Shown here: one piece after another, positions 4,681 through 36,839 of the stretch | How positions within the stretch are numbered: the first letter of the stretch is position 1 | How the letters are laid out: each line of letters starts with the position of its first letter | From: Nitrospirota bacterium | GTDB taxonomy: Bacteria > Nitrospirota > UBA9217 | Direction of reading: 5' to 3' | Assembly: GCA_029858565.1 (NCBI GenBank) | Contig: JAOUEV010000008.1 | Coordinates: forward strand, 2,003 to 66,002 | Length of the DNA: 64,000 nucleotides | Made by a program: the position numbers and the translations under genes | The notes under the pieces: model-generated | Told to the model about the DNA's origin: nothing | Seen by the model: only the letters and a program-made list of their open reading frames with translations | Database searches by the model: none

Positions 4681-5334
4681 TCAGGGAAAGACCGCACCCT
4701 GGGCAGCTCCGTGGCCTGATACCCTGTCGTATCGCTCCTGGTCATCCTGAAGCTGCTTGACCTTTTCATCGCAAAGACACCGTACCGCCCGGTCCAGTTC
4801 CTCGCAGGTCGCAGCAGGAGGGAGCATGGAGACCGCGTGGGTAAGTTCATCAGCCGCCTGCACGACCTGATAACTGTGCAATGATTCGTGGTCCATGAGG
4901 CTCTGCAGGTAAGCGCGCCATTTTGTCACAAGCTCCGGCGGGGCATTCTCCGCGGTAATCCATTTTGGATACCGGTAGACAATATTGACGTCCACGGAAA
5001 AGGAGTCTACTGAGCACGATCCTTTGCCGTTGTTATACCCGTAATCCCATTTGAGTTCCCAGTCGGTGAGGGCATCGTATTTTCCGCCCGCTACCCGGAT
5101 GTTGCCGTTCTGCTTCATCTGGCGCCGGAGATCGTTCTCGCAGGTGCCGGTGATCTCGTAGTACTCGACTGATTCCTTTATTTTTGGACGGTTGCATCGG
5201 CACTCGTGTGTCTGCCGGGAAACATGACCCAAAGACGCGATCCTTGAGCTCTCCTCTGCCTCTGCGGTCGCGACGCAAAGGATGAGAAGCGGAAACATAA
5301 CGATCTTGCCGCGCATACCGGTGACTATCTGCAT
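4681..5334 (-). CDS. DUF922-like putative secreted Zn-dependent protease
   Basis: Signal-like N-terminus, HESLH (HExxH) motif, YPKW segment typical of DUF922. Confidence 0.7.
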
Positions 5335-6675: not shown

Positions 6676-7197
6676 CTACACAAACAGGGCGACACTTTCC
6701 CGCGGCAGCCGCTTCTGAGCGCCCGGCGGGACCTTGCCGGGATAGCCCACGGGCACGATCGCAATGGGACGCAGATTGTCGGGCAGATCCAGCGTCTCGA
6801 TGACGTCGAACTCGTTGAACGCGCCTACCCAGCAGGTGCCGAGGCCCCGCGCCTGGGCAAGGAGCATGAGATTCATCACTGCCGCGGATGTGTCCTGGAT
6901 GGCATACAGGTTCACGCCCCGATCCCCGTAGCGGACCGATATGGTTCGGTCAAGACAGGCCACGATAACCAGCGGCGCCTGCGCTATGAACCGCTGGTCC
7001 AGCGCCGCCTTTGCCAGGGACCTGCGCACAGCAGCGTTCTGGATAAAATAGAAGCGCCTGCTCTGCAGATTGCCTGCGCTCGGCGTCCAGCGGATCGCCT
7101 CGATCATTTCCTCGACGACCTCAGTCGGCACCTCCCGCTCAATGAAATCGCGCACGCTCCTCCGCTGACGGATGATGTCGAGGATATCCATGTGCAT
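6676..7197 (-). CDS. Nitroreductase family protein
   Basis: RRSVRDF, PSAGNLQ, GLGTCWVGAF, VPVGYP motifs. Confidence 0.9.
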   Translation of the reverse strand: MHMDILDIIRQRRSVRDFIEREVPTEVVEEMIEAIRWTPSAGNLQSRRFYFIQNAAVRRSLAKAALDQRFIAQAPLVIVACLDRTISVRYGDRGVNLYAIQDTSAAVMNLMLLAQARGLGTCWVGAFNEFDVIETLDLPDNLRPIAIVPVGYPGKVPPGAQKRLPRESVALFV

Positions 7198-7278
7198 TGC
7201 TCCTTTGCAGCCTACGTTCAGCGGCGCCTCACCCTACCTCGTGCCCTCCGGCGCACCGCCTGCCGGATACGGTGGAAT

Positions 7279-8821: not shown

Positions 8822-9253
8822 AATGGTCTCCTTTTTTATTGATCATTACTGACAAGCAAGCGACGCTGTAAAGCCTCCGTGTCGTGCGCGGGCGCCTCCT
8901 TACCGCCCCAACGAACCTGACCAGTGCTTAGACCATTCAAGGACGTTGCTGACCTTGCGTACTCCCGGGCGATGACGAACGTATTGACACCACGCGACCT
9001 GTCCCAGCAAGCGTCGCAAGACCCTGTGCTCCCCCGGTCCGGAGCAAGTCAACTGTATATGAATTTGCTGCCTTTGGGAACTACCCATAAGGGTAGCTTG
9101 AATAGGCTTTTCTATCTCCGCGACCAGGGATTGCATCCTGCGGTTCCGGAAGCGCTGTCATCATATGGGAATACACCCTCAGCGGCAGCTCGGATATCTA
9201 TGGACAGAGGGTGGGTTTCGACGGCGTGTTATACGCGCATACTTCATACTATG

Positions 9254-11742: not shown

Positions 11743-12183
11743 TCACATCCTCATCCTGGTCAGCATCGGAATGGCGACGGCCGCCACGATGCCCAGCAAC
11801 CCTATGATGATCCCGATCAGCGCCGTGATCCCCGTGAATTTCCAGAACGACTTCTGATGGCTGAATGCGGCCTCCAGGTCCGCGACGCCGTACCCTTCGA
11901 GAAAGCGGCCGATGGCGGATGAATACCGGTACAGATACAGAGCCGGAATGAAATAGAAAACCGAAATAACGATATAGAACAGCCCGAGGAACGCAGTCGG
12001 TGCGCCCTTCTGGGTCTGGAGCATGCGCGCAAACACCGTGACGCCGACCCCCAGCAGCACCATGAATCCCACGGCGATGAAACCCAGGACCGCCAAGAGC
12101 TTTGTCCACGGTTTGATCGAACGCATCGATTCCACCATACCCCCGGTTACCGCAACACCGTTCTCCGCTGCTTCGTTGTTCAT
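11743..12183 (-). CDS. DUF5362-like membrane protein
   Basis: KPWTKLLAV...QKSFWKFTG pattern with three TM segments. Confidence 0.7.
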   Translation of the reverse strand: MNNEAAENGVAVTGGMVESMRSIKPWTKLLAVLGFIAVGFMVLLGVGVTVFARMLQTQKGAPTAFLGLFYIVISVFYFIPALYLYRYSSAIGRFLEGYGVADLEAAFSHQKSFWKFTGITALIGIIIGLLGIVAAVAIPMLTRMRM

Positions 12184-12376
12184 GACAATGTCCCCCTTCG
12201 CGTCAGCAGGTCTATTCACTGATACTGATAAAAGCTTTCTGTCTTCCGATCACGATGCTCTTTCAAAACGAATCTAGTACAGATAAATACAAATTGCAAG
12301 AAAGAACTGTCTCTGGCCGGTCTTTTTGGTGAAGATATTTCTACTACACTTTCGGGCAGGTAGGGCGCGGTGAAGC

Positions 12377-12493
12377 GGACAGTACAGCGACAGGAGGCAA
12401 CAAGATGGGGACGACATATGTTCGACAGAAAAGCGACAGAGGGGCGACAGACGGACGATAAATGGACGACAGAAAGGCGACAGGGTGCGACAG
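12377..12493. repeat. Helically phased array of CGACAG (reverse complement CTGTCG) at 11-bp period
   Basis: CGACA(G)-type cores at 12412, 12423, 12434, 12445, 12456 (CGATA), 12467, 12478, 12488; outlying copies at 12377 (GGACAG) and 12388. Confidence 0.85.
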
Positions 12494-12528
12494 AGAAAAC
12501 TGCGTGAGACGAACGGCAAGGACGGCTT

Positions 12529-12605
12529 GATCCCCGATGGAATCATTCGGGGATGACGGGCTAAACCACTGCCCCCTCACCCCTGCCCTCTCCCCAGAGG
12601 GTAGA
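12529..12605. repeat. REP cluster; second REP hairpin is interrupted by the mobile element
   Basis: TCCCCGA..TCGGGGATGAC hairpin, then CCCCTCACCCCTGCCCTCTCCCCAGAGGGTAGA whose missing GGG is found at 24426-24428. Confidence 0.7.
12601..12605. other. Left copy of 5-bp target-site duplication GTAGA
   Basis: Identical 5-mer at 24421-24425; bases on either side differ; joining the flanks restores CCCTCTCCCC-AGA-GGGTAGAGGG. Confidence 0.8.
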
Positions 12606-12611
12606 TATAAC

Positions 12612-12655
12612 TGCGCGTTTAGTTTTCCATTTTTTTGCACTCAGTTTGCCATTTT
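12612..12655 (+). repeat. Two tandem 22-bp putative transposase-binding sites (Mu R1/R2-like)
   Basis: TGCGCGTTTAGTTTTCCATTTT and TTTGCACTCAGTTTGCCATTTT, 16/22 identical; the first starts 6 bp inside the terminus. Confidence 0.75.
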
Positions 12656-12722
12656 ATAACCCAGAAAGCTCATTTTTTGTATGCTTAACGCCATATGACA
12701 AGTGCTTTATTCAAACTGTAGA

Positions 12723-12956
12723 TCAGGCTTCTTTCTCAAGCCCTTTAACTACCCGTGCCCGATAGTTATTGTATACGGTCTGAAAATTATCGCTGTTTTC
12801 CGTAGATGCGTAGAGGCCCCGCAACTGGTCGAGTAGCAGACTCCTATCCACGCCTGGGTGTTCTGCAAGCATACAAACAATATCGGTTAAGAGTACACCG
12901 ATCGCAGCAGTGGAATCAGCACAGGCAGTAACCGCGCTTTGTGTGTCTTTTTCCAT
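12723..12956 (-). CDS. Small hypothetical protein, last gene of the element's main operon
   Basis: CAGGAGG RBS before ATG 12956; 77 aa. Confidence 0.65.
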   Translation of the reverse strand: MEKDTQSAVTACADSTAAIGVLLTDIVCMLAEHPGVDRSLLLDQLRGLYASTENSDNFQTVYNNYRARVVKGLEKEA

Positions 12957-13011
12957 TTGTGATCCTCCTGGGAACAGCCGACTTGTCACGGTCAATAACG
13001 TGAATTAATAA

Positions 13012-15024
13012 TTATTGTCCGATTCCGAATGCACTTCTAACCGCTGGGCTTGTGTTTGCGAGTTTCAGTAATACGGTGGCAATATATCGCTCACCATCGA
13101 ACTGATGCTTGCCCACCTGCGCGTCCAGCTGAACGCCGGACTGGTTAATAACGCTTATCGAAACGTTTGGCATGTTGCCTACGTCGCCCTTGTTGATTCT
13201 GTCGAGGGCGGCCACGCCCTTGCGCGACACCACGTATTCACCGGTCTGCAGGATAGCGGGACGCTCGTCGGACGATAGCCCTCCCACATGGAACCGGGGG
13301 ATATATCCTCCGCTGTGCATGATCAGCCCGCCGGAATGTTTAAAATAAGGTCCAATAACCGGCGGTTGCCCGTACCCGGATCCTCCTACATTTGCACCTG
13401 GATCACTTATAAGTGCGCCGCCGACAGCGGTTGTTCCCGTTTTATTTTCGGCATTTTTAATACCTGTAATAGCAATCACAGATTGCTGCGCAAGAATATT
13501 TGAAATCGCGCGCGCCACGGAAAGCAAGAAACTTTTAATATATTGCCAGAAGCTCTTAAGTTTACCCGTCATTGCGTCAAAGAAAAATTCAGAGAACGCC
13601 TGTTCCATGCCGCGCGCGGTTTCCTGGGCGATATACACGCCTTCCTGGAAGCGGCTTCGAAGGCTGTCATTATACCGCTTTAAACCTTCGTCAATACCCT
13701 CTTGAAACGTGCCGTCCAACTCCCGCAGCGCCAACCTCAGGTCGGAGATTTTTCTGATGGTGTCATCGATCTCTTTTTGCTTCGCGGCCCGCTGGTTAGG
13801 ATCGTTGATCGGCTTCAGGTTCGCCTGCTGCACGCTGAGCAGCCGTTCCTCGATCCGTAGCCGCTCGCGGGCCGCATCAAGATGGGAAATATCGCGGTTT
13901 TTCTCTGCTATATCGAGGTAGGCCATCTCGCGCATGATCTCCGCTTCTCGCGCTTTCATGGCAACTTCATATTCCAATTGGGATTGTGCTCCCGTACCCC
14001 TGCCGCCTCCTGATCCGCTGAACGATGGATCGGTGCCGGTTCCGCCGCCGGAGAGCGGAGATTCCGCTTTTCCGAAGGCCGCCTTGAAGTACGTTGCGCT
14101 CAGGTTCTTCAGCTTCTCGAAGTCCGCCTTGGTCTTGGCCAGCGTCTCGTCGGAAACGATGCCGACCTTGTTCAAGGCCGTCTGCGCCAGGGTAGCCAGA
14201 CCCATGATGCCGGCGATGCCTCCGCTCATGAGCCCCATGACAATATCCACGGTCCCGAGCGCGAAACTCTTGATGCCGCTGCCGAAGCTCCAGATCGCGC
14301 TGCCGACGGTTTCCTTCAGATCGTTCCACCAGGCCTTGAGCTTCTGCATCTTTTCGGCGTTGTTGCCCTGGACATCGCCGAACTTTTCCATCTGCTTGCC
14401 CGCGTTCTCCATGGCCAGGGCATAGAGGTCCACATCGGTGATGCCCATGGACATGGCCTCGGACAGGAGCTGCACCTGTTCCTTGGAAACAAGACCGTAC
14501 TTCAGCAGCGCCCGCGGCATCTTGTTTGCGATCGCGTCAGTGATCGTCTCGTATGCCGTGCCCACGTCCTCGCCCGTGACTCGCGCGGAGATCCTCGCGG
14601 CCTCCATGATCTTCGTGAGCTGGTCGCCGTTGAGCCCCTGCATCATGCCCTTCACGGCCTTCTGCATGATGTCCGAGTCGTCCACGGTCCCGGCGGCCGC
14701 GCGCTTCATGTTTTCCAGGATCTCGTCCGCGCTCTCTCCGGACGCCTCGGCCACCTGGCGGAAAGACGCCTCGGCCTGCTCGGCCTTGGCTCCCAGCTCC
14801 ATGTACTCCAGCGCCTTGCTGATCGCGACGCCTGCGGCGGCAGCCGCGGCGGTGATGGCGATCCAGTTCTCTTTCATGGACTTCATAAAGGAGCCGGTCT
14901 GCTTGTCGGCCTTCCCGGTCTCGTCGCCGATGCCCTTGATCTGCTTCCCCAACTGGTCAAGGGTCCCCTTGGCCATGTTGTAGGCTTCGATGACGAGCTG
15001 TATTTTCTGGCGGTCGTTCGACAT
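13012..15024 (-). CDS. Phage tail tape-measure protein
   Basis: Ala/Gly-rich helical 670-aa protein; typical TMP N-terminus (IQLVIEAYN..KGTLDQL), central hydrophobic stretch, C-terminal FHVGGLSSDERPAILQTGEYV motif. Confidence 0.85.
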   Translation of the reverse strand: MSNDRQKIQLVIEAYNMAKGTLDQLGKQIKGIGDETGKADKQTGSFMKSMKENWIAITAAAAAAGVAISKALEYMELGAKAEQAEASFRQVAEASGESADEILENMKRAAAGTVDDSDIMQKAVKGMMQGLNGDQLTKIMEAARISARVTGEDVGTAYETITDAIANKMPRALLKYGLVSKEQVQLLSEAMSMGITDVDLYALAMENAGKQMEKFGDVQGNNAEKMQKLKAWWNDLKETVGSAIWSFGSGIKSFALGTVDIVMGLMSGGIAGIMGLATLAQTALNKVGIVSDETLAKTKADFEKLKNLSATYFKAAFGKAESPLSGGGTGTDPSFSGSGGGRGTGAQSQLEYEVAMKAREAEIMREMAYLDIAEKNRDISHLDAARERLRIEERLLSVQQANLKPINDPNQRAAKQKEIDDTIRKISDLRLALRELDGTFQEGIDEGLKRYNDSLRSRFQEGVYIAQETARGMEQAFSEFFFDAMTGKLKSFWQYIKSFLLSVARAISNILAQQSVIAITGIKNAENKTGTTAVGGALISDPGANVGGSGYGQPPVIGPYFKHSGGLIMHSGGYIPRFHVGGLSSDERPAILQTGEYVVSRKGVAALDRINKGDVGNMPNVSISVINQSGVQLDAQVGKHQFDGERYIATVLLKLANTSPAVRSAFGIGQ

Positions 15025-15057
15025 GGGTGTACTCCTTTCAGATAGTTCTACGTATAA

Positions 15058-15498
15058 TTAAACTCGCGAAGATGATCTGCTTTTCTGAAGGGTATATTTG
15101 AGCACGCTGTGTTGATCATCTTCGTTCATTTCTATCAAAATCTGTCTCACTTTTTCAATTAACGCTGTACCTCGAAGCATGCCTGGCATAGCTGATGGAG
15201 TCTCTATATTGTTTCGTACAAAGACATTATAGATGCCTGTCGGAGTCATTCCGTATTTTTTTGAAAGCTTCTGCAGTGTAAATTTGTTGGTATGATAATC
15301 CGCAATGATTTTGTTATCGCGTTCCTTCCTGCGCACGACAGTCAGGCACTCCAGCGTTTTCGGGAAATACACCTGTTCACCACGGAGCTCTGATCCAAGC
15401 TTCACCGTTGCACCGAGGCCGATGATTTTAGCGATCATCTGGTATGTTGGGTGAAGCTCGTTCTCCCGGATGCTAATTTGCTTTTCATCCATCAGCAC
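15058..15498 (-). CDS. Mor/C-family transcription activator (Mu middle-operon regulator-like)
   Basis: IAKIIGLGATVKL..ELRGEQVYFPK dimerisation segment and RDNKIIADY..LQKLSKKYGMT HTH. Confidence 0.8.
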   Translation of the reverse strand: MLMDEKQISIRENELHPTYQMIAKIIGLGATVKLGSELRGEQVYFPKTLECLTVVRRKERDNKIIADYHTNKFTLQKLSKKYGMTPTGIYNVFVRNNIETPSAMPGMLRGTALIEKVRQILIEMNEDDQHSVLKYTLQKSRSSSRV

Positions 15499-15516
15499 TT
15501 TACCTCCACAGTTACT

Positions 15517-16302
15517 TTAGACCGCGCAGTATTCGACACAGACGGTTTCCCGATTTTCGGTTATCAATGTAGGCTCTCCCATGAGCTCCCACCGCAGTTT
15601 TCTAAGGGCAGTAGCTTCAATTCGGGCGACACTGCTTATTGAAAGCCCAGCTTTTACACCAACTTCTTCCGGCATAAGATCACACCAGTATCTAAGAATT
15701 ATTATCTTACGTTCCCTGTCGTTAAGCTCCAGCAACGCTCTGCGAATATTATGGTTGAATGCCGATTTCTCAGCACTGCACTTGGTTTCAGCAGTTCTGA
15801 ATGAATTCCCATTTCTTCGCTTATCGAATATTTGCGGTATTATTGAACTATCCCCATCCGAAACGAACATGTCTTGCCGAGTAGCCGCGTCTTCTTTGTC
15901 GCCCAGAAGCTCATCTAACGAATTATGTTTGTTCTTATGGTAATCTTTGAGGCAGTCAATTATCTGACGGCTAATTGCTGGTTTCGCATAGGCAATAAGC
16001 CGGATCCCTCTTTCTGGATCGAACAGTTTAGCTGCTCTCATTAAACCCTGGCAACCTTCGGCAACCATGTCCATAAATGGCAATCCTGGGCGCCAATACT
16101 TCCTGACGATGAAAATAACGAACTTGATATTTGACTCTACGAGAAGTTCAGCTGCCGCTTCATCTCCGGATTGAGCCCTGCGAGCGATCCTGCTTTCATC
16201 CTCTCGTGATAATACTGGTCTTTGTTTAAGGTCTTCCCGAAGCATCCTGAGTAATTCCCAGTCTCCACCGCCATAACCGGAATTCTGTTTTTCCTCTTTC
16301 AT
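15517..16302 (-). CDS. Element-encoded sigma-70 family RNA polymerase sigma factor
   Basis: Region 1.2 (LSREDESRIARR), region 2 (LVESNIKFV, EGCQGLMRAAKLFDPERG), region 4 HTH (LNDRERKIIILRY..VARIEATALRKLR). Confidence 0.88.
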   Translation of the reverse strand: MKEEKQNSGYGGGDWELLRMLREDLKQRPVLSREDESRIARRAQSGDEAAAELLVESNIKFVIFIVRKYWRPGLPFMDMVAEGCQGLMRAAKLFDPERGIRLIAYAKPAISRQIIDCLKDYHKNKHNSLDELLGDKEDAATRQDMFVSDGDSSIIPQIFDKRRNGNSFRTAETKCSAEKSAFNHNIRRALLELNDRERKIIILRYWCDLMPEEVGVKAGLSISSVARIEATALRKLRWELMGEPTLITENRETVCVEYCAV

Positions 16303-16350
16303 GCGACCTCCCCGAGTGGTAATATCAACCAAGGAAGGATATCCCGCTCC

Positions 16351-16389
16351 AAAAGCCACGCCCTCCTGCCCAGGACGCGCGTGGCTTTT
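16351..16389 (-). terminator. Hairpin with U-tract between the 94-aa gene and the sigma gene
   Basis: AAAAGCCACGC-17 nt-GCGTGGCTTTT. Confidence 0.55.
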
Positions 16390-16673
16390 TATTTTGTCGC
16401 TGCTACGGGGATCTCTTTAAGTCCGTACGATGTTTCACGAATCAATGTTTCCAGTTCCTCGCATTTGGCGTGGGTTGCTTTTTGCAACCGACCAAGAATC
16501 GAAAATACCATTGACCATTCAATATCGATTTTGCGTCCTTCCCCGGAAGACAATGCAGTTATTTCTCCGAGCTTGATCATCGTTTCTATTTCATATAAGT
16601 GGTTTGTAATATCATTGCGCAGATGATCGAGTTTAACGTATGCGTTCTCTTTCTGTTTTGAAAGCTGATTCAT
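16389..16673 (-). CDS. Hypothetical protein (94 aa)
   Basis: GGGGG RBS-like run before ATG; co-oriented in the element operon. Confidence 0.6.
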   Translation of the reverse strand: MNQLSKQKENAYVKLDHLRNDITNHLYEIETMIKLGEITALSSGEGRKIDIEWSMVFSILGRLQKATHAKCEELETLIRETSYGLKEIPVAATK

Positions 16674-16753
16674 TGAAGCCCCCCTTGGTTAAGTTATAGC
16701 CACGCTTCCACCTGACAGCGTGGCTATTGATTTTATTATTTGCTGAACTCGTT

Positions 16754-17875
16754 CTACAGGTTGATCCCGATTGTTTGATACTTTGCTTTTATATCGTCAA
16801 CGGCTTTCTGGATCACAGCTCTGTCCTTGTACGGTCCAGAGAGAGAGCACACTGCTGCTATTTGACCATAGTTATGCTTATCCTCTAAACCTTCAAATGC
16901 TTTGAGGTTGAAGGTCGGTATTGCAAACCTGTCAGCATCGCCCCCCGTCCGCCGAATCGCAAAACCTTCAGCCCTGACTTCCTTCGACAGTCGAGCTGGA
17001 GAACCCATGATCTCATCCAAGGCCGTCAGCTCTTTGAACTTGTCGATGAGTTGAATAGAAAGCTTGATGTATTCCTGACCGACAAGTTCGGCCTGGCCCA
17101 TCAAAAACTCGTTGATGATTTCCTTCCGGCTGGACCGGAGCAGAGTCAGCTCATTCTCGGCTGCATCGAGTTTTCGCTGGAGGCCCGCGATGATTTGCTT
17201 CGCGTTGCCGGCAACCTTGTTGAATTCTTCAAGCGCTGCTTCCCGCGCCGCAATCTGCTCATCAAGCGCTTTGAGGTCTTTTCCCGTCGCAGTGCCCAGA
17301 GAGATGGCTGCAAGGATATCTTCTCTCTCTTGCAGCAGATCGTCTGCGGACTCGGGCACGGCCTGACGGGCCTTCTCGATCGTGCTTGTCTGATCCGAAA
17401 TGAGAGCCTGAAGTTCTGCGACGGTTCTTTCTGCCGCTGCAACATCCTCTTGATACTGAATAAGATCCTCGATGCCGAGTGAATGACCATAATTCGTCAG
17501 TTCTTTTTCGGCGTTCACGAGATCCTGATGTGTGCTCTGCGCGTGCTGCCGGGCATGTGCGGCCACTTCTTTGGCATCCGCAGCAGCCTTCTGAAGTTTG
17601 TCGAATTCATCTTTTTCCCAAGGGGTCATGCGCTCTACATCTTCTGCGTGGTGCCTCCCATTAAGGCGATTCACGCCTTCAATGGTGCTTTTAAATGAGT
17701 AGACCTGTCCTGTCGCCCGTGCTGCAATGTCCTCTTTGTCGTCGGCGACCTTGATAGCAGCAAGACATTTTTCTCTGAGCAACTGCGCACGACGACGAAG
17801 GTCTTCTCTCTTTGCCACCCGTTCCCTGTACGACACCTTCCCTGGGGCATCCTGTACGTCCGCTTTCTTAGCCAT
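16754..17875 (-). CDS. Coiled-coil protein of unknown function (373 aa)
   Basis: AGGAGG RBS; long Ala/Glu/Lys/Gln heptad-like runs. Confidence 0.8.
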   Translation of the reverse strand: MAKKADVQDAPGKVSYRERVAKREDLRRRAQLLREKCLAAIKVADDKEDIAARATGQVYSFKSTIEGVNRLNGRHHAEDVERMTPWEKDEFDKLQKAAADAKEVAAHARQHAQSTHQDLVNAEKELTNYGHSLGIEDLIQYQEDVAAAERTVAELQALISDQTSTIEKARQAVPESADDLLQEREDILAAISLGTATGKDLKALDEQIAAREAALEEFNKVAGNAKQIIAGLQRKLDAAENELTLLRSSRKEIINEFLMGQAELVGQEYIKLSIQLIDKFKELTALDEIMGSPARLSKEVRAEGFAIRRTGGDADRFAIPTFNLKAFEGLEDKHNYGQIAAVCSLSGPYKDRAVIQKAVDDIKAKYQTIGINL

Positions 17876-17968
17876 GTGCTTTCCTCCTATCGTTAATTTG
17901 ATGGTTCGTAAATTCTCACGAATGCTTTAGTGAGGGATTTCCTCGATGTCATCCGTGGAGTTATTTAT

Positions 17969-18178
17969 TTATCGCTTCGGCGATACCGATGCGATGTTTC
18001 GTACAATTTCATCAAGTTCGCTCTGTTCTTCTTTCGACACTTGTGCAGCAAATTCATTGGTATGTTCGCCTTCTGACAGATCAATAAAAAACACAGAGCC
18101 AGGGGACATGGGGACAAAGCGACATCCCGATATCTGGCGAAGTTTTTGTTGAAATTTATGATCGTCTATGCGTATCAT
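17969..18178 (-). CDS. Small hypothetical protein
   Basis: GGAG RBS before ATG 18178; 69 aa. Confidence 0.55.
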   Translation of the reverse strand: MIRIDDHKFQQKLRQISGCRFVPMSPGSVFFIDLSEGEHTNEFAAQVSKEEQSELDEIVRNIASVSPKR

Positions 18179-18230
18179 ATTTTCTCCACGAGGCTGCTGA
18201 TTATTCCCTAACGAGTTTTCTATCGAGCCT

Positions 18231-18599
18231 TTAGAGGGCAAATATATGTTTTGCCGCTCTCGTCAGTGCCAAAAGACGATCCCCAACAGTCGTATCCCTA
18301 CCGAACAGGATGAGATCGCGACGTTTGTCCTCCGGCACCATTTTCGAAGCACCTATTTTCCGAGCTTCCGAGTAGTAGAGCCGATGGCACGAACCGGATC
18401 CAAAACCACAGAAATCCTTCTGCCTCCCGGAAAGAGGCTTTCCACAGCGGCGGCAATGCCTCCCATTTGCCGCTTTATTAGCTGTGCGCAGCTCGCTGGG
18501 GGCCTCAGGGGGAGCAATATGGGGCATGGGGCTACCCTGGCACCCAAAACGCACATTTTCCTCCGTCGTATTCACCCCAGCACTGTCTAAACGTTGCAT
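18231..18599 (-). CDS. Hypothetical protein with putative Zn-finger
   Basis: GAGG RBS; CRRC-GKPL-x5-FC-x5-C motif common in phage early proteins. Confidence 0.6.
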   Translation of the reverse strand: MQRLDSAGVNTTEENVRFGCQGSPMPHIAPPEAPSELRTANKAANGRHCRRCGKPLSGRQKDFCGFGSGSCHRLYYSEARKIGASKMVPEDKRRDLILFGRDTTVGDRLLALTRAAKHIFAL

Positions 18600-18648
18600 T
18601 CCATGTTCCTCTCTACCTATCCGTCTGTAGCCCATCAACAACAGCCGT

Positions 18649-19170
18649 TTAAACGGTATTCGAAACCGGCTTACCCGTGTCCGGCGCGTCCGGTTTTCTT
18701 TCGCGTGCGCCGTCCTTTTTCCGCCTGACCATATTGTTCAATGTATGGATCACCTTCCGGGTTGTGACCGTATCCAGGAACCGAAGGTCTGAAACCTTGA
18801 AATGCCGATCTAAAAACGTGCGCAGGGCCTTTTCTCTTTTTTTATGATCCCTGATATCAACAGCATCACGCCAAAGGGCTTCGATCTTTCGGAGTTGAGA
18901 AGGCTGCGCCATATCTGCCCGATGACCAAGATTTTCAAACCGTTCTTTGCCCTCGAACTTATTCCACACGCCGCGCTCGATCGCGCTGTCTTCGAGTGCC
19001 GTAATGAGCGAGTTGGCTTGTTCGGATGTAAGCTGTTTTGAAGATGCCGCTTCAAAATTGATTGCGAGGGTACCCCGATACTCTTTTTCCGTCATCTTGA
19101 GGGCTGTTTTCAGCGTGTGAATTTTTTTGATCTGCCCTACGTCAATCATCTTATTTGCCGTGTTCAACAT
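18649..19170 (-). CDS. GemA / Mu gp16 family (DUF1018) protein
   Basis: QIKKIHTLKTALKM..YR..L..ASSKQLT and SQLRKIEALW..LRTFL..LRFL motifs. Confidence 0.82.
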   Translation of the reverse strand: MLNTANKMIDVGQIKKIHTLKTALKMTEKEYRGTLAINFEAASSKQLTSEQANSLITALEDSAIERGVWNKFEGKERFENLGHRADMAQPSQLRKIEALWRDAVDIRDHKKREKALRTFLDRHFKVSDLRFLDTVTTRKVIHTLNNMVRRKKDGARERKPDAPDTGKPVSNTV

Positions 19171-19501
19171 TGCCTGCTCCTTTCTCGTTCTTCTGAAACC
19201 AGTAACCTACTGTTCTGGGACATAGTCCAAGTCGCTTCGCTATTTTTTCGGCCGAAATCTTCGACTTTGTTCTGAGCCGCAATGCCAGCCGGTATGCATT
19301 AAGGTGAGGGGCAAGAACTCTAACAGTGTCTCCAGATGGTGTTTCCTGGAGCCAGTAACGAACTGTTCTTGGATTCATACCGATGCGTCGCGCTATTTCA
19401 ATTCCTGTTAACGCTTCACATTTCCTCAATCGCAAGGCTTCGAGATATTTGCTCTGGTGAGATAAATGAGCACGTATGTTACGCAGCCTGTCCTTTCTCA
19501 T
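19151..19501 (-). CDS. Tandem-HTH DNA-binding protein in the MuB position
   Basis: Two similar HTHs: GIEIARRIGMNPRTVRYW and AEKIAKRLGLCPRTVGYW; ATG 4 bp after the transposase stop. Confidence 0.7.
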   Translation of the reverse strand: MRKDRLRNIRAHLSHQSKYLEALRLRKCEALTGIEIARRIGMNPRTVRYWLQETPSGDTVRVLAPHLNAYRLALRLRTKSKISAEKIAKRLGLCPRTVGYWFQKNEKGAGNVEHGK

Positions 19502-19505
19502 GCGA

Positions 19506-22112
19506 TCAGTCCTCTTCAGAGAAAAAATATCCCGAGCCACGCTTAGTTAATACATAGCGTTCCGCTCCGACCTTTCGGAGTTTGATTCGCAGTCTTGTTA
19601 CGTGAACATCTATTGCCCGCAGCTCCATGGATAGGCCGTTTCGTGAGATGGCTTCCTTGATCGCGGCTCGTCCAAAAACTTTGCCTCGGTTTTCCATGAG
19701 AAGGCGAAGGAGTCTGAACTCCATGGGGAGGAGATCAACAATCTTGCCTTCAGCCACAACTCGCTCACGGTCCAGATCCATTAGTAGCGGGCCGGCGCTG
19801 ACTATTGATTTTTCAATAGCCGCGTTATATTCTTTCTTTTTCTCCAGGTAATCGGCCATGTCTCTTTGATATTGTGCTTCCGCATCTGCTTCATCACTCT
19901 CAAAAATGATAAGCGGTTTTTCCGGCCGAATCGGTCGTGAATCCTCCAGATATGAAATTTCCTGTAAAGTACTGTAGCCATCGGTGCCGGTTAGCTGCAT
20001 CTCGCGATCACGTCGAACGACTTCATCCATGGCAGTTTTTGCGAGACGAAGCACTTTGACTTTTTTCTTGTCGGTTGTCGTGCAACCGCGAGCAAGATTC
20101 ACTGCTACTATTCCTGCGGCAAGATGTTCTACGGTTTCAGATGGCGCAACGGCTCGATTGTCCTTCAAATATGATTTCGCGATTTTCCTTGTGCGGTGTT
20201 TATGGGCCAATGCTGCCTTGAGTTCCGCTCTTTCTATGTCCGTTTTAGCGAGCGCCTGGACTGCTCCCACCAAGTTGGCTTTCCCCAGGTACTCATCCGT
20301 TGTGGCATCAAAGACCCAAGCAGTCTGGTAGGCTTGCACATCCCGGCGTAAATAGACTTTGGTCCCTGTGAGGGCATACATGAATTCGCCAAAGTAAGTG
20401 ACCTGGAGTTCACTATCTCGCACGCCATTTCTGCCGATCGTGACTTCCTTACTGGTTCTCTGACAAAATAGTTTTAATGCATCGGCTCCGACCTTTCGCA
20501 TCTCCGATCGTTCAGCATTCCATACTTCATCCGGACATCTGCCCTGGAGCACCTTTCCATTTGACGGCATTTTATTAGCGACGGTCATGATATAGACATC
20601 CATCAACTTTAGATATTCGTCGTAGGAGAGAATGCGGCCGCTTTTAATTTCTCCGTCAAGGCTATCCGGTCTTTCGGTGACATTGCCGCCACGGTAGCCT
20701 GGCATGTGTTTGCTGAACCATTCCTTGTTGCGCAGAAAATCTCGTTCAATCGGTTTGGTCTGAGCATTGTATGGTAGTGCAAAATGAGGAGTGACGCCGA
20801 GAAGCGAAAGCATACTGGTCGTTTTCTTCTCGTCAACCGTCACCCGGCCGCGCTTCCGGCCTCCGGCAAAATCGCGCGATTTATAATCACGGCCATTGTC
20901 GATATAAAGCTCTTCCGGCAATCCGTTTTCTTTTACTGTGTAATAGAAGGATTGAAATATATGGTCGCTATTCGGCGGCTCAGGATGATGCAGCCAGCCA
21001 AGCCACTTGGAAGTTTTATAATCGCGCCATGCCGTGATCCATGGAAAACATGCCTTGCCGTTCGGCAGCATTACCGCGACATCGACTTGAGCGTGATCCC
21101 CTACAATGACTTGGCCGGGTTTTATCTGGCTGTAATCACGGTCCACATGCGATGCATATTTTCTATTCCAGGCCTCCGGACCAAAGCGAGCCAAAAAGAT
21201 TGAGCTTTTCGGTATTTCACGCTCGACGCGGCGAAGAAATGCGGACGGTGAGGGGAATCCTTCAAGTTGAAGCTGCGGATTGAGAGTCCGTGCATATCCG
21301 AGGGTACGAGTCCAACACGATTTAACGGAGGGCGCGCCTTCCTTCAGATATGCATTTTTGAAGTACTTATAATGGTCATCCTGCACTTTGCTGTTTCCGG
21401 CAGAATGACCGTATTTTGCGAGCAGTCCGGCAATGCCTTGCTCAGCATATTTATTTCGTGCATCGAGAACCGCGTCATAGGATGTTTTCAGGTCAGGCTG
21501 AGTGCCGTTCCACTCAGCTACAAATTGCCTGAGGCTTGCACCCTTGAGTCCAGCAGAGGCGCGAATGATTTGAAGATATTTATCAGCCTTCTGCCGAGCC
21601 CAGCCTGGCGCTGCCGCGTAGAGTTCACTCTCTATCTCTTCGTCGGTCATGGGCCGCAGCGCTGTGCCGATGTTTACGACTTCGCCTGTTGCGGTGTCGA
21701 TTAACTCGCCGCTTGCGATTTCTATATTCTTATTGGCATTCTCTGCGGTGATTGATAAAGAGTGCGCCGGTACAGAAGCAGATGGCACCTGACAAGGAGG
21801 AGGCTGCATCTGTACCGGCGCGAGTTGATCAGGGGTGCGGTCGCGAACCCGCTCCTGATCTATAGAAGATGCAACAGATGACCACAAAGGAGGTTTGTTT
21901 TCGCCATCTGTCACATCCATGCTGCCAGGTTGTAAGAAGAGTGCCTTGATGTCTTCGGCAAGACCATCAGTCTCAAATTCTTCGGCAACCTTATGGTTAA
22001 CGATTCTGGTACCGCACGACTGCCAACCTTCCTTTAGCTTGCGCTTTCGGATGGCATGCCAGGTGACGCCTTTTCGTTCGGCTATTTCTTTCAGTGTCGC
22101 CTTCATGCTCAT
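19506..22112 (-). CDS. MuA-like DDE transposase with C-terminal OmpR/PhoB-type winged-helix domain
   Basis: Mu-type N-terminal HTH (TLKEIAERKG..KEGW), catalytic D (GDHAQVD), D (IDNGRDY), E (KPIERDF), Mu-transposase C-terminal region, then EFRLLRLLMENRGKVF..IDVHVTRLR..TKRGSGY. Confidence 0.92.
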   Translation of the reverse strand: MSMKATLKEIAERKGVTWHAIRKRKLKEGWQSCGTRIVNHKVAEEFETDGLAEDIKALFLQPGSMDVTDGENKPPLWSSVASSIDQERVRDRTPDQLAPVQMQPPPCQVPSASVPAHSLSITAENANKNIEIASGELIDTATGEVVNIGTALRPMTDEEIESELYAAAPGWARQKADKYLQIIRASAGLKGASLRQFVAEWNGTQPDLKTSYDAVLDARNKYAEQGIAGLLAKYGHSAGNSKVQDDHYKYFKNAYLKEGAPSVKSCWTRTLGYARTLNPQLQLEGFPSPSAFLRRVEREIPKSSIFLARFGPEAWNRKYASHVDRDYSQIKPGQVIVGDHAQVDVAVMLPNGKACFPWITAWRDYKTSKWLGWLHHPEPPNSDHIFQSFYYTVKENGLPEELYIDNGRDYKSRDFAGGRKRGRVTVDEKKTTSMLSLLGVTPHFALPYNAQTKPIERDFLRNKEWFSKHMPGYRGGNVTERPDSLDGEIKSGRILSYDEYLKLMDVYIMTVANKMPSNGKVLQGRCPDEVWNAERSEMRKVGADALKLFCQRTSKEVTIGRNGVRDSELQVTYFGEFMYALTGTKVYLRRDVQAYQTAWVFDATTDEYLGKANLVGAVQALAKTDIERAELKAALAHKHRTRKIAKSYLKDNRAVAPSETVEHLAAGIVAVNLARGCTTTDKKKVKVLRLAKTAMDEVVRRDREMQLTGTDGYSTLQEISYLEDSRPIRPEKPLIIFESDEADAEAQYQRDMADYLEKKKEYNAAIEKSIVSAGPLLMDLDRERVVAEGKIVDLLPMEFRLLRLLMENRGKVFGRAAIKEAISRNGLSMELRAIDVHVTRLRIKLRKVGAERYVLTKRGSGYFFSEED

Positions 22113-22177
22113 CCTGTGTTTTAATAGTCGTTGCGTACTCGCTCAAAATACGATACAATCGTGTTCATTGCGGGCAA

Positions 22178-22426
22178 CTATGCCTTCTGTTGATTGCCAT
22201 CAGGCCACAGCTCGGAGATCCTCATCCGAAGTGCGGCCGCAATGGAGCGGCGTATTCGCTGCCCGCGCCTGCGCCCGTGAATAACAAAGGACACATATGC
22301 TTTTGTGACATGTTCTCTTTCTGCGATTTGGAGGCCAGTAACTCCCCTTAACACCATTATTGATTTTATGTTCCTCGCCCCCAGGACGCCGGAACGTGTG
22401 CTTTTTTTAAGTAGCTTTTTCGACAT
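22178..22426 (-). CDS. Ner/Cro-like HTH regulator
   Basis: 82 aa, IAAALRMRISELWP C-terminus resembles Mu Ner; lies between repressor and transposase. Confidence 0.75.
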   Translation of the reverse strand: MSKKLLKKSTRSGVLGARNIKSIMVLRGVTGLQIAEREHVTKAYVSFVIHGRRRGQRIRRSIAAALRMRISELWPDGNQQKA

Positions 22427-22477
22427 GTGTTTTTCCACCCTTGCTCCGTATGAATCGCTCCTGATGGCAATGTAGTA

Positions 22478-22548
22478 GTTAACCGATATACTATGGAATC
22501 TAACAACAAGCGGCTTGGGGTAAGCCACATTGTGTTAACCTGTATATC
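22478..22548. promoter_or_regulatory. Candidate operators in the divergent ner/repressor switch
   Basis: Direct repeat GTTAACC..TATA at 22478 and 22534. Confidence 0.4.
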
Positions 22549-22578
22549 ATGTTGTAGGTATGAATATAGTCACAAAAT

Positions 22579-23043
22579 ATGACAATGTCAACAACAAAAT
22601 TCATATTAACTGACATTATTAAACGCATCAAACAGCGCGAATTAATCCGCAGTGACGTTAAGGTCGCTGAATTACTAGGATTAGAGCGCACTGCATTTGC
22701 TGAGAGAAAGCGCAGGAATAGTATTCCGTACAAAGAATTAGTCATATATTGTGAACGAACCGGAACCAATATGCATTATCTTCTTACCGGAGAAGGTTTG
22801 GATATTAATGCTGCGCTTAGAACAGTTCCGTTAGAACTGCGAAATAAACAGCTGTACTACATTGGAAGATGGGTGGATGTGTTTTGGGAAAAAGCCACAG
22901 AAGAAGAGCGGGCATGGCTTTATGTGGAACTCCAAAGGGTATTCCCTGAATTTAAAAAATGGATACAGGAAGAAGAGGCAGAACTTGAAAGGTCTTTCAA
23001 TGAATTTTCGAACACTGAAAAACCGGAAGGTGGCGATCAATGA
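22579..23043 (+). CDS. Phage CI-type repressor (HTH)
   Basis: SDVKVAELLGL..RNSIPY..MHYLLTGEG, typical of the phage CI-repressor HTH family; divergent from ner. Confidence 0.82.
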   Translation: MTMSTTKFILTDIIKRIKQRELIRSDVKVAELLGLERTAFAERKRRNSIPYKELVIYCERTGTNMHYLLTGEGLDINAALRTVPLELRNKQLYYIGRWVDVFWEKATEEERAWLYVELQRVFPEFKKWIQEEEAELERSFNEFSNTEKPEGGDQ

Positions 23044-23666
23044 AGATAGTGATCTTCTGCATCATCACGACAATGTTTTTTTCGGGATGCGCGTCGAAGA
23101 GAACTTTCACTCAAGATGAATGGACCAGGATCACCACTCGGGAATATAGTGGTAGGTCAGCCACGGAAGTTTTTGATGCAATCGAAAAGGTTCTTCGCCT
23201 TGCCGATGAATCTGATGTGAAAATATACCGGTGGCCGGATCGCCTTATAGCAACGAGGTCATATCTTATCTACGCTGTGCTCGCAGCAACGAACGGACTA
23301 TATACATTCGACATTCATACAGTGCCAGGAGAATCAGGCACAAAAGTCGTTGCTATTATTACGCTCACCGCAGGAACAATAGCAGGAGCGCCGACAGCCT
23401 ACAATCCAACGATTATCACGACCCCTTCAGCGGGCGGCATGGTTATGGATAATCCGGAAACCTATGATCTGTTCTTCTCCCGAGTAAAGTATTTCCTCAA
23501 CGGGGGAGTCTGGGTAACCTGTGAGCGTGCCACAGAAATGTACCGAGATAGCCCATCCGGTGCACTCGATGGTTTATGTTTAATGAGTGATGATGACCTT
23601 CCGGAAGAAATGCGGCAGTCTACCGAAGGAAACAACTCCTGGCGATCTCGCCGCGCGCGTCGTTGA
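23040..23666 (+). CDS. Lipoprotein cargo, unknown function
   Basis: Signal peptide with lipobox FSG-C; overlaps the repressor stop by 4 bp. Confidence 0.75.
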   Translation: MKIVIFCIITTMFFSGCASKRTFTQDEWTRITTREYSGRSATEVFDAIEKVLRLADESDVKIYRWPDRLIATRSYLIYAVLAATNGLYTFDIHTVPGESGTKVVAIITLTAGTIAGAPTAYNPTIITTPSAGGMVMDNPETYDLFFSRVKYFLNGGVWVTCERATEMYRDSPSGALDGLCLMSDDDLPEEMRQSTEGNNSWRSRRARR

Positions 23667-23692
23667 TGTTTTAGTATTTAAAGGAGACATTC

Positions 23693-24007
23693 ATGGAACT
23701 GACAAAGCCAAGAGCGCAGGAGAAAAAGGTAAGAGATAAGATCATCGCAGCGCTACGAGAATATAGACCACAGGATGACATAGCTTTCTCAAAATTCACA
23801 AACGATAGAATCCCTGATGAGTTCTACCATAAAGAAATAACGAAAGCAGGGATTGAACAGGGATTAGAGTGTCTTCGTCTAATCAATAATATGAGCGGTC
23901 TCTCAGCAGGAGACTTTGATCTGCTCACGCTTTTGGAACACTACATTTTAAATCTTGATTCCCGCGATGCAATAAACAAGGTTCTCAATGCAAGGCGTGG
24001 ACGCTGA
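23693..24007 (+). CDS. Hypothetical cargo protein (104 aa)
   Basis: AAGGAG RBS; co-oriented with repressor and lipoprotein. Confidence 0.7.
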   Translation: MELTKPRAQEKKVRDKIIAALREYRPQDDIAFSKFTNDRIPDEFYHKEITKAGIEQGLECLRLINNMSGLSAGDFDLLTLLEHYILNLDSRDAINKVLNARRGR

Positions 24008-24114
24008 TTCTTTTTGGAACTGTGTACCTGGATCCCGACTGCTCATTACGCTTACATTCAGTGATGATCGTAGCGCCGCCTGCTCTCCCAGCCGATACCG
24101 TCCATATTCCTTGC

Positions 24115-24163
24115 AGGTTACATAGGTCACATAGGTTACAATGGGGCTATGTAACCAGTTACA
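24115..24163. repeat. Cluster of GTTACA/TGTAAC motifs
   Basis: AGGTTACAT-AGGTCACAT-AGGTTACAA (3 x 9 bp) then palindrome TGTAAC-CA-GTTACA. Confidence 0.8.
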
Positions 24164-24256
24164 AAGGTGAGTGCCGGAACAAGCGCGCTTAAATATTAAA
24201 AAGCCTTGCGTTAAACGATATTTAAACGGTCATCAAAATTTATCGCGCGATTTGAG

Positions 24257-24414
24257 AAAGTTGAAGACTGCCCGCGCAATAATGTAAAAAACGTGTACTT
24301 CCGGAAAAAAATGGCAAACTGATCCCGCCGCGTTTTTTTCTCGATTCCATCCTTAATATCAATACGTTATAAGCACACCTCCCTTTGTAACCAATAAAGA
24401 GAATTACCTGAAAA
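24257..24414 (-). repeat. Three putative transposase-binding sites (Mu L1/L2/L3-like), inverted relative to the left-end sites
   Basis: Reverse complement of 24308-24329 shares TCAGTTTGCCATTTT (15/15) with the second left site; 24257-24278 is 16/22 to the first left site; 24393-24414 is 12/22 to the second left site at the same offset from the terminus. Confidence 0.7.
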
Positions 24415-24420
24415 AGCATA

Positions 24421-24425
24421 GTAGA
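24421..24425. other. Right copy of target-site duplication GTAGA
   Basis: Matches 12601-12605 and is followed by the GGG completing the REP stem. Confidence 0.8.
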
Positions 24426-24446
24426 GGGCAGAAAATTTATCGTTGT

Positions 24447-24463
24447 TGTAATCTTCCTGTAAC
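24447..24463 (+). promoter_or_regulatory. Pho-box-like direct repeat in the pstS promoter
   Basis: TGTAAT (24447) and TGTAAC (24458) at 11-bp spacing about 55 bp upstream of the pstS ATG. Confidence 0.6.
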
Positions 24464-24515
24464 ATTCAGCGGTTATAACATTTCCATGATAAACTCATCA
24501 AGGAGGCATATACAT

Positions 24516-25523
24516 ATGAAGCATCTGTTGATCGCGATTGCGATTCTTTCGGCCTTAACCCTTTCCCCGGCAGCCCACGCCATCGAGACCCTGAACGGCG
24601 CTGGAGCCACGTTCCCCTATCCGGTCTACTCGGCCTGGGCCTATGACTACAGCAAGGTGGCGGGTATTCAGCTCAACTACCAGTCGATCGGTTCCGGCGG
24701 GGGTATCAAGCAGATCTCGGAGCGTACCGTGCATTTCGGCGCGTCCGACAAGCCGCTTACCCCCGAGGAACTTAAAAAGGACAACCTGCTCCAGTTCCCC
24801 GCGGTCATCGGCGGCGTGGTCCTGGTCGTGAACGTTCCGGGGGTGAAGTCCGGAGACCTGAAGCTTGATGGTTCCGCGACCTGCGGCATCTTCCTTGGGG
24901 AGATCAAGACCTGGAACGATCCCAGGATCAAGACCCTGAACCCGGGGCTCGGCCTGCCTGACTCGGCCATCACCGTGGTGCGCCGGTCCGACGGCTCCGG
25001 AACCACCTCCATATTCACCGACTATCTCACCAACGCCTGCCCGGCATGGAAAGCAAAGGTCGGCAGCGGCACCTCGGTCAACTGGCCCATAGGCATCGGC
25101 GGCAAAGGCAATGAAGGCGTGGCGAACTACGTGAAACGTTCGGCCAACTCCATCGGCTATGTGGAGTTCGCTTATGCAAAGCAGAACAAGATGGTCCACA
25201 CCAAGCTCAAGAACAAGGCCGGCTCGTTCGTTGAGCCGAACTTCGAGAGCTTCGAGGACGCGGCAAAGACCGGAGACTTTGATCCGAAAAAGGATTTTTT
25301 CCTCTGGCTCACCAACGCGCCGGGAAAGAACGCCTGGCCCATTGCCGGTGCGACCTTCATCCTGCTGGCCGGCGACAAGAAGGACGTGAACACCCGGGTT
25401 GTCAAGTTCTTTGACTGGGCATTCCAGAACGGCGATGCCAAGGCAAAGGAGCTGGTCTATGTGCCTCTGCCCAAGACGCTCAAGGACAAGGTGCGGCAGT
25501 ACTGGAAAATAAAGGGAATATAG
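24516..25523 (+). CDS. pstS: Phosphate ABC transporter substrate-binding protein
   Basis: GAGATFP, YQSIGSGGG, RSDGSGTT, IGYVE motifs; AAGGAGG RBS. Confidence 0.96.
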   Translation: MKHLLIAIAILSALTLSPAAHAIETLNGAGATFPYPVYSAWAYDYSKVAGIQLNYQSIGSGGGIKQISERTVHFGASDKPLTPEELKKDNLLQFPAVIGGVVLVVNVPGVKSGDLKLDGSATCGIFLGEIKTWNDPRIKTLNPGLGLPDSAITVVRRSDGSGTTSIFTDYLTNACPAWKAKVGSGTSVNWPIGIGGKGNEGVANYVKRSANSIGYVEFAYAKQNKMVHTKLKNKAGSFVEPNFESFEDAAKTGDFDPKKDFFLWLTNAPGKNAWPIAGATFILLAGDKKDVNTRVVKFFDWAFQNGDAKAKELVYVPLPKTLKDKVRQYWKIKGI

Positions 25524-36646: not shown

Positions 36647-36839
36647 TATTTTGACTCTCCATTCCTATCATGAGGATCGTAGCAGGGACATTCGTGTATT
36701 TATTTGAATTGTGTTATATCGCGACAAACCCGAGTCTATCAGAAATAGATCGTCCTGTAAATTGAAATTGACTCGATCCGCTGATATCCTTATAGTAATT
36801 CATCATTCATATCACGAAAGGTCAAAATCTTAATAACTC

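Follow-up and report, generated by a model that had tools for sequence, protein, structure and literature searches.

A Mu-like element whose transposase carries an appended PhoB-type domain, inserted beside predicted Pho boxes of pstS: a putative target-selection module

A 64,000-nucleotide stretch of contig JAOUEV010000008.1 from a Nitrospirota bacterium (hereafter, the window) contains a Mu-like transposable element inserted at the promoter of pstS, and the transposase of this element ends in a DNA-binding domain of the PhoB type. Sequence comparison suggests that a Mu-like element has here acquired a putative new target-selection module. We consider it probable that this Mu-family element, with its PhoB-fused transposase and without MuB, is tethered to host Pho boxes for target choice. 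The chances are about even that it represents a natural single-polypeptide, sequence-directed DDE transposase, in which a cis-fused transcription-factor domain replaces the AAA+ partner and acts at a fixed offset of 25 to 26 nt without TnsC/TniQ adaptors or guide RNA. Mu is the textbook near-random transposon and delegates target choice to the ATPase MuB. To our knowledge, the site-selective bacterial DDE transposons (Tn7 and the CRISPR-associated transposons [CASTs]) rely on a selector apart from the transposase, together with an AAA+ adaptor. An initial annotation of the window, made from the sequence alone, knew of no system of this kind, and the literature searched yielded no account of a fusion between a MuA-family transposase and an OmpR/PhoB domain.

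The transposase gene and the appended domain are located as follows.

19506-22112, minus strand: MuA-type DDE transposase with appended PhoB-type effector domain (open reading frame, Pfam, homologue alignment, NCBIfam, PDB alignment)
19509-19814, minus strand: PhoB-type effector (winged-helix) domain, residues 767-868 (NCBIfam, PDB, AlphaFold2 [AF2] model, ratio of nonsynonymous to synonymous substitution rates [dN/dS])

The open reading frame encodes 868 amino acids from its first ATG and 866 (P0001) from the start chosen by the gene caller, two codons later. Pfam assigned the Mu I-gamma end-binding domain HTH_Tnp_Mu_2 to residues 238-321 (E 6e-8; 33.1 bits, cutoff 20.5), the Mu DDE core DDE_2 to residues 334-516 (E 8e-15), domain II-beta (Mu-transpos_C) to residues 552-609 with a marginal score (22.8 bits, cutoff 21.7), and Trans_reg_C to residues 791-864 (E 6.7e-17; 61.8 bits, cutoff 26.2). 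In the alignment with PDB 4FCY, residues D337, D403, and E454 corresponded to D269, D336, and E392 of MuA, and all three were invariant among 15 aligned homologues; therefore, the enzyme looks active. The match to TnsB was weak (E 3e-4). The full-length AF2 model was moderately confident (predicted local distance difference test score [pLDDT], 62.7; predicted template modeling score [pTM], 0.34) and was used for domain topology only; it showed a winged-helix-like N-terminal domain at residues 1-58, comparable to I-alpha of MuA. The profile scan and the structural alignment thus upheld the initial annotation, which had described an intact DDE transposase ending in an OmpR/PhoB winged helix.

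The last 100 or so residues of the transposase constitute a complete OmpR/PhoB effector domain. Its best NCBIfam family was PhoB (TIGR02154, 68.8 bits, profile positions 128-226 of 226), with a modest margin over other subfamilies (59.7 bits for the best non-PhoB family), and its top PDB match was 1GXP, the DNA-binding domain of Escherichia coli PhoB (E 3e-11). The closest full-length relatives were proteins annotated as PhoB, at 52% identity; the one designated P0126, annotated as PhoB of a Nitrospirota bacterium, also has the unusual C-terminal SEED in common with the domain. Judged by these matches, the appended domain is of PhoB origin. Its identity to the PhoB encoded in the window itself (1415-2122) was 34%, in agreement with the one-third estimated earlier by eye. 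When aligned with E. coli PhoB, the domain was found to keep R193, V197, H198, R201, R203, and the wing residue R219 and to carry Ala in place of T194, as had been proposed for four of these positions (V197, R201, R219, and T194). The recognition helix has the motif RxxDVHxxRLR; V197 and R201 are base-contacting residues in E. coli PhoB. The AF2 model, with moderate confidence (pLDDT about 72-81), gave the expected topology of an N-terminal beta-sheet (strand region 774-790), three helices (794-805, 813-820, and 829-844), and a C-terminal beta-hairpin wing (852-862). The fused domain therefore resembles PhoB in the full effector fold, in its best family match, and in its presumed Pho box target, and it differs from PhoB in the Ala substitution and in being joined by a long helix to a transposase. 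No Pfam match to Response_reg, the receiver domain with the phospho-acceptor Asp, was found in the fusion protein, in which the effector domain comes after the transposase instead; because the receiver is missing, phosphorylation control would be absent. The helix directly before the domain is single and about 30 residues long in the AF2 model (residues 736-767; 19815-19910, minus strand). As modeled, it could be a spacer or a dimerizing coiled coil that places two domains on tandem boxes.

The fusion was not confined to the window. A search among 5.8 billion clustered proteins returned seven further fusions (P0002 to P0008) of the same architecture from independent assemblies. All eight open reading frames were intact, and the pairwise identities among the proteins were 59 to 83%. 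In an exhaustive search of 1.84 billion representative proteins, the C-terminal 160 residues fell into a single 50%-identity cluster at E < 1e-30, and scans of genome, metagenome, and viral contigs with an alignment of the fusion C terminus returned ordinary OmpR-family regulators only (about 40% identity) and no further fusions. The fusion family is rare. Other long winged-helix proteins (P0153, P0132, and others) were rejected as fusions, as they are tandem Trans_reg_C arrays without a transposase. The dN/dS ratios were 0.08 to 0.29 for the domain, where dS was computable, and 0.03 to 0.15 for the catalytic core, with dS near saturation; purifying selection acts on the domain. If the fusion were a chimera of the assembly, which the initial annotation had listed as a refuting outcome, or two genes joined by read-through, the artefact would have to recur in eight independent assemblies as one continuous open reading frame with a conserved linker and with selection acting on the domain. 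Since the same architecture recurs across assemblies, a chimera was ruled out, and an artefactual origin of any kind deserves practically no credence. The fusion is real, old, and constrained.

The following features define the insertion site in the window.

1415-3912, plus strand: host phoB and phoR (NCBIfam: PhoB, 284 bits; PhoR and PnpS families)
12606-24420, minus strand: Mu-like transposable element, 11,815 bp, running from a left (repressor) end at 24420 to a right end at 12606 (homology with five further elements; 5-bp duplication)
12601-12605: target-site duplication GTAGA, right-end copy (identical to 24421-24425)
24421-24425: target-site duplication GTAGA, left-end copy (sequence read)
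24447-24468, plus strand: host Pho box TGTAATcttccTGTAACattc, predicted, beginning 26 nt from the element end (only match in 64 kb)
24516-25523, plus strand: pstS, with a probable start ATG at 24516 after the ribosome-binding site AAGGAGG (NCBIfam PstS, 401 bits)

The box pair in the window is TGTAAT-N5-TGTAAC (TGTAATcttccTGTAAC), and the -10-like hexamer TATAAC follows 10 nt after it (24474-24479). The claim that the element sits at the pstS promoter beside repeats phased at 11 bp was thereby borne out. Equivalent positions were found for fusion elements on other contigs (loci designated with L numbers).

Window locus: transposase P0001; left end faces pstS; duplication GTAGA; 26 nt to the box pair; 95 bp to the pstS start
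L004/L005: transposase P0007 (about 64% identical; PstS 72%); right end faces pstS; duplication GATTG; 25 nt to the box pair; 93 bp to the pstS start
L001: transposase P0002 (74% identical); left end faces a pstS-like start; no matching duplication; 26 nt to the box pair; 103 bp to the start

At L004/L005, the element lies between phoB-phoR-DUF3047 and pstS-pstC, next to the box TGTAACattccTGTAAC. The box at L001 is TGTAACattttTGTAAC, and only MKKIVAMA of the pstS-like gene is on that contig. The offset to the boxes was constant in the three loci (26, 25, and 26 nt), while the offset to the pstS start varied (95, 93, and 103 bp). A relaxed box pattern had eight matches in 221 kb of related sequence (both strands), all of them upstream of pstS or psiE. 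The five pstS promoters that were read (window, L001, L004, L173, and L174) share TGTAAC-N10-TATAAN, in which 10 nt separate the second TGTAAC from the -10-like hexamer, and the box pattern recurs in two psiE promoters. This spacing of the -10 hexamer matches the classic Pho-promoter arrangement of E. coli. L173, from a close relative of the L004 host, has an unoccupied pstS promoter with three phased TGTAAY units, and its psiE promoter carries TGTCATActccTGTAACA, in which a half-site of the E. coli type is mixed with the local one. In L174, from the genome whose PhoB is the nearest to the fused domain, pstS is preceded by CTGTAATattcCTGTAAC and psiE by GGTAACAgcgcTGTAACA. Because the pattern is confined to pstS and psiE promoters and lies at the -35 position, the TGTAAC pairs are read as the local form of the Pho box, a prediction from sequence. 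A search for an empty allele of the pstS locus of the window returned only a 1.2-kb contig, which starts 71 bp upstream of pstS.

The window and L004 elements lie in opposite orientations, have different duplications, and are bordered distally by nonhomologous flanks (the DUF5362 gene and a CTGTCG array in the window; DUF3047, phoR, and phoB in L004). These differences favor two or more separate insertion events, which hit one and the same position to within 1 bp. The probability of landing by chance within about 30 bp of the sole box pair in 64 kb is about 1e-3 per event. The idea of Pho-box-directed insertion put forward in the initial annotation fits these comparative data, in which three diverged elements, not all in one orientation, lie 25 to 26 nt from equivalent boxes. 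Neither of the two non-fused relatives examined (L010 and L011) is adjacent to pst genes. DNA binding by the fused domain and its causal role in target choice are inferred from these sequence relationships.

The ends of the element were compared among six elements, and the tips were set by homology (left TATGCTTTTTCAGGTAATTCTC, right ...CAGTTATA).

12606-12660, plus strand: right end, with the tip TATAACTG followed by the site repeats TAGTTTTCCATTTTT at 12620 and CAGTTTGCCATTTTA at 12642, 22 bp apart (end comparison)
24220-24420, minus strand: left end, with the tip TATGCTTTTTCAGGTAATTCTC (L1), CAGTTTGCCATTTTT at 24307-24321 (L2, +100), and a weaker copy at about +151 (end comparison)

The right end thus has two CAGTTTTCCAT(T) sites, at +15 and +37. 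The transposase-site motif had three matches in the window, against 0.11 expected, and these were solely at the two element ends. Multiple inverted transposase sites per end and a 5-bp duplication, as expected for a Mu-like element, were present (GTAGA in the window, GATTG in L004). As the ends are Mu-like and unlike Pho boxes, the extra domain is not needed for end recognition, for which the conserved N-terminal domains suffice.

The C-terminal region of the fusion proteins was compared with that of non-fused relatives, which are about 650 residues long and 50 to 59% identical and end at about residue 750 with the conserved tail PPERxxKKIxLFExD. The fusions retain this tail as RPIRPEKPLIIFESDEAD, and the helix of about 30 residues and the domain of about 100 residues are added after it. 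The proposal that a MuB-binding tail had been replaced by the PhoB domain was therefore not sustained: the ancestral tail is kept, and the domain is appended. The retained tail may be the MuB-contact region. In both non-fused relatives examined (L010 and L011), a MuB-like AAA_22 gene of about 295 amino acids directly follows the transposase gene. No AAA+ gene of the MuB type was found by Pfam or NCBIfam in any open reading frame of the window element, and none was found in six related elements; MuB loss goes with the fusion. The position of MuB is occupied by another gene.

19151-19540, minus strand: small double-helix-turn-helix (double-HTH) protein, 129 aa, in the MuB position (Pfam HTH_23, two stretches)

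This gene (113 to 134 aa) is present at the same position in the window element and in the six other fusion elements that show the region (for example, L003 12007-12357 and L006 11370-11774) and is absent from L010 and L011. Its products are 38 to 60% identical among fusion elements and evolve faster. An origin as truncated MuB was rejected, as the protein has no similarity to MuB-like proteins. The MuB loss fits a takeover of target capture by the fused domain, and we infer that the fusion transposase is independent of MuB.

From these comparisons, the following mechanism is proposed. The N-terminal and core domains would recognize the multisite ends by their CAGTTTTCCAT repeats and catalyze DDE strand transfer, staggered by 5 bp. 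On its long helix, the appended domain would bind host Pho boxes (TGTAAC(A)-N4 direct repeats with an 11-bp period), so that one or more C-terminal PhoB domains would tether the end-bound transpososome to a Pho box. Strand transfer would then take place 25 to 26 nt (about 2.5 helical turns) upstream of the box pair, on the side away from the promoter, and the tether would tolerate both orientations. Since the box pair and the -10 region stay joined to an intact pstS, such a site would act as a safe harbor.

Within the element, one repeat cluster has sequence in common with the host boxes.

24100-24170: cluster of inverted and 9-bp-spaced TGTAACC repeats, 255 to 300 bp inside the left end (sequence comparison)

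The cluster reads TGTAACC-N2-3-GGTTACA, then AGCCCC, and then TGTAACC repeats spaced by 9 bp, and it shares a hexamer with the host Pho box. The non-fused L010 has the same cluster architecture with TGAACC half-sites (about 3780-3830). Because of this counterpart, the cluster is regarded as ancestral, with no tie to the fused domain in particular, and its probable role is that of an old regulatory site or enhancer. With its 9-bp spacing, its inverted repeat, and its counterpart in L010, it was rejected as specific evidence for an internal site of the fused domain.

Several observations weigh against Pho-box tethering by the fused domain. Only two or three independent insertion events are documented in all, and the window and L001 copies, which have the same orientation, could descend from one event. 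The left flanks of L003, L006, and L008 (3' ends of a response-regulator or kinase gene) contain no boxes, and these elements may be exceptions to the Pho-box location. The contigs do not reach their right flanks, so that these elements count neither for nor against targeting. The tabulation of insertion neighbors proposed in the initial annotation found boxes at the window, L004/L005, and L001 and was uninformative for these three box-less left flanks. At L001, the right flank is unrelated and has no box, and the sequences bordering the element do not match (ATAAG at 123-127 and ACCGT at 9080-9084), which suggests an intramolecular replicative event, a recombination between two copies, a rearrangement, or an assembly threaded through two copies. 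In the domain itself, the T194 equivalent is Ala, and the wing R219 is replaced in two fusion homologues (His in P0004 and Val in P0005; P0003, whose contig ends before the wing, was not in this comparison). The double-HTH gene co-occurs perfectly with the fusion, and its product could be the real selector or a cofactor. In addition, a helper's MuB might still be used, since the ancestral tail is retained.

These observations bear on two other explanations of the data. The PhoB domain might have a regulatory or assembly role, through element-internal DNA, through phosphate-coupled or repressed transposase expression, or through a sigma contact, with the pstS site being one old insertion or a hotspot of another kind. 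This is unlikely in our judgment. The divergence of host and element between the window and L004 is similar (PstS, 72%; transposase, about 64%), as it would be under vertical descent. However, one old insertion would not readily account for two elements oppositely oriented to pstS, each with its own perfect 5-bp duplication and with a nonhomologous other flank, nor for a site that does not follow the element phylogeny: P0004 is nearer to P0002 (76%) than to P0006 (65%), and the flank type of P0004 is shared with P0006. As for internal DNA, no 11-bp-phased Pho box was found inside any element, and a non-fused relative has the internal TGTAACC cluster as well. The box-less left flanks of L003, L006, and L008 would suit a domain without a targeting function. 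A sigma contact would suit an element that encodes its own sigma-70 factor, beside the Mor homologue; transcriptional activation by PhoB effector domains involves contact with sigma region 4, and a link between the element sigma factor and the fused domain is conceivable.

Alternatively, the double-HTH protein might be the target selector, docking on the retained tail, with the PhoB domain being auxiliary or unrelated. Its location in the MuB position, its presence in every fusion element showing the region and absence from the non-fused relatives, the retention of the transposase tail, and the ability that two HTH units could have to read a direct repeat are all in line with this explanation. 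However, the protein has no known link to Pho boxes and evolves faster, and it is the fused domain that descends from the regulator by which the boxes at the insertion sites are read. We consider a selector role of the double-HTH protein quite improbable and retain tethering by the fused PhoB domain as the preferred explanation.

The fusion elements were compared with known systems. The window element shares with phage Mu the DDE_2 core with its D-D-E triad, the I-gamma and II-beta (Mu-transpos_C) domains, and the winged-helix-like N-terminal domain. The layout of the ends is also that of attL and attR of Mu, with left sites at the tip, +100, and +151, two adjacent right sites 22 bp apart, and a 5-bp duplication, and a divergent CI-type repressor, GemA, and Mor are likewise common to both. 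In contrast to Mu, the window element has no MuB gene and has a PhoB effector domain after the normal C terminus of the transposase, the fusion elements are 9 to 13 kb long without a head/tail module apart from a tape-measure-like gene, and their insertion is apparently site-selective instead of near-random. With Tn7 (TnsABC plus TnsD) and Tn7-like protein-guided selectors, the fusion elements have in common that a DNA-binding module appears to set the insertion about 25 bp to one side, where it is harmless to the host gene (PMC10293859). In Tn7, the selector is a separate protein acting via the AAA+ protein TnsC, and the orientation is fixed, whereas the fusion elements have the DNA-binding domain within the transposase polypeptide, encode neither an AAA+ adaptor nor TniQ, and are found in either orientation. 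The window element lacks the combination of TnsC, TniQ or TnsD, and TnsA that marks a Tn7-like transposon. Neither Pfam nor NCBIfam matched any of its genes to TnsC, TnsD, or TniQ, and no CRISPR array was seen, as the initial annotation had anticipated in excluding TnsC/TnsD and an RNA guide. The fusions described in a survey of Tn7 target selectors are to TniQ and not to the transposase.

The candidate fusion differs from two other kinds of cis-targeted integration, as it is a natural bacterial protein that would read DNA sequence, whereas engineered fusions are synthetic and chromodomain integrases are eukaryotic. The principle is common to all: in engineered zinc-finger and Gal4 fusions to ISY100, Mos1, and piggyBac, a cis targeting module on a DDE recombinase biases integration nearby, and the chromodomain integrases of chromoviruses carry cis-fused eukaryotic modules that read chromatin marks. 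If Pho-box tethering is true, the fusion elements would represent a third and simpler evolutionary route to a safe-harbor address, with a borrowed domain for operator reading built into the transposase itself. They would then provide a minimal natural model for tethered target capture, the offset of 25 to 26 nt would measure the geometry between the bound domain and the active site, and target specificity might change by domain swap. The long-discussed engineering idea of fusing DNA-binding domains to transposases would become testable in a system tuned by evolution.

The remaining annotated genes of the window element are as follows.

13012-15024, minus strand: tape-measure-like protein, 670 aa (Pfam Tape_meas_lam_C, weak; homologues in full-size relatives)
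15058-15498, minus strand: Mor-family activator (Pfam Mor, E 2.4e-9)
15517-16359, minus strand: element-encoded sigma-70 family factor, regions 2 and 4, beside the Mor homologue (Pfam Sigma70_r2 and Sigma70_r4)
18649-19170, minus strand: GemA homologue (Pfam GemA, E 1e-18)
22579-23043, plus strand: CI-type repressor, divergent from the transposase gene (Pfam Phage_CI_repr)
23040-24007, plus strand: two left-end genes, 208 aa and 104 aa (no Pfam family)

The element also encodes several genes without a named function. Its GC content is about 0.44 to 0.52, against about 0.55 to 0.61 in the flanks. According to Pfam, it has no head, tail, or lysis genes apart from the tape-measure-like gene; L004 adds tail_S and Gp37-like genes, and a complete virion module was not found in the fusion elements. 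Homologues of the tape-measure-like protein, about 50% identical, came from full-size, non-fused relatives, and the protein is not specific to fusion elements. The reduced layout is the same in the fusion elements (for example, L001 128-9079 and L004 7171-20633). Because it is common to members that are just 59 to 75% identical, the fusion elements may have a satellite-like or purely transposon lifestyle and not represent a decayed prophage. At L008 (543-3153), extra cargo was observed between the left tip and the repressor region, consisting of a Ser/Thr protein kinase (Pkinase) gene and a gene for 393 aa.

Two further features were observed at the insertion site of the window.

12377-12494, minus strand: host array of about nine CTGTCG(C) half-sites with an 11-bp period (six pattern matches against 0.46 expected; period 11/22)

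The array lies outside the element, about 110 to 230 bp beyond its right end, and points toward a DUF5362-like gene (11743-12219). It resembles Pho half-sites of the E. coli type (CTGTCAT) and is absent from the other pstS loci examined. The fragment 12370-12500 had been proposed for binding assays with the isolated winged helix; being host DNA beyond the right end at 12606 and present in this host alone, the repeats were rejected as part of the element and as a shared target, and they are not a common denominator of the insertion sites. In addition, the reconstituted target of the window (12580-12605 plus 24421-24432) lies within a GC-rich inverted repeat, CTGCCCTCT cccc AGAGGGtAGAGGGCAG, which is split by the insertion.

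The elements of L003 (about 7188-7204) and L006 (about 5104-5161), whose transposases are 65% identical, both lie just downstream of a similar histidine-kinase/single-receiver cluster, and this arrangement may mark a second locus that is targeted repeatedly. Where relatives of PhoB and of the tape-measure protein are named, they come from Nitrospirota/Nitrospirae metagenome-assembled genomes. No tRNA genes or Rfam matches were found in the 64-kb window. Elsewhere in the window, the GC content dips to 0.43 at 36000-37000, against a background of about 0.59.

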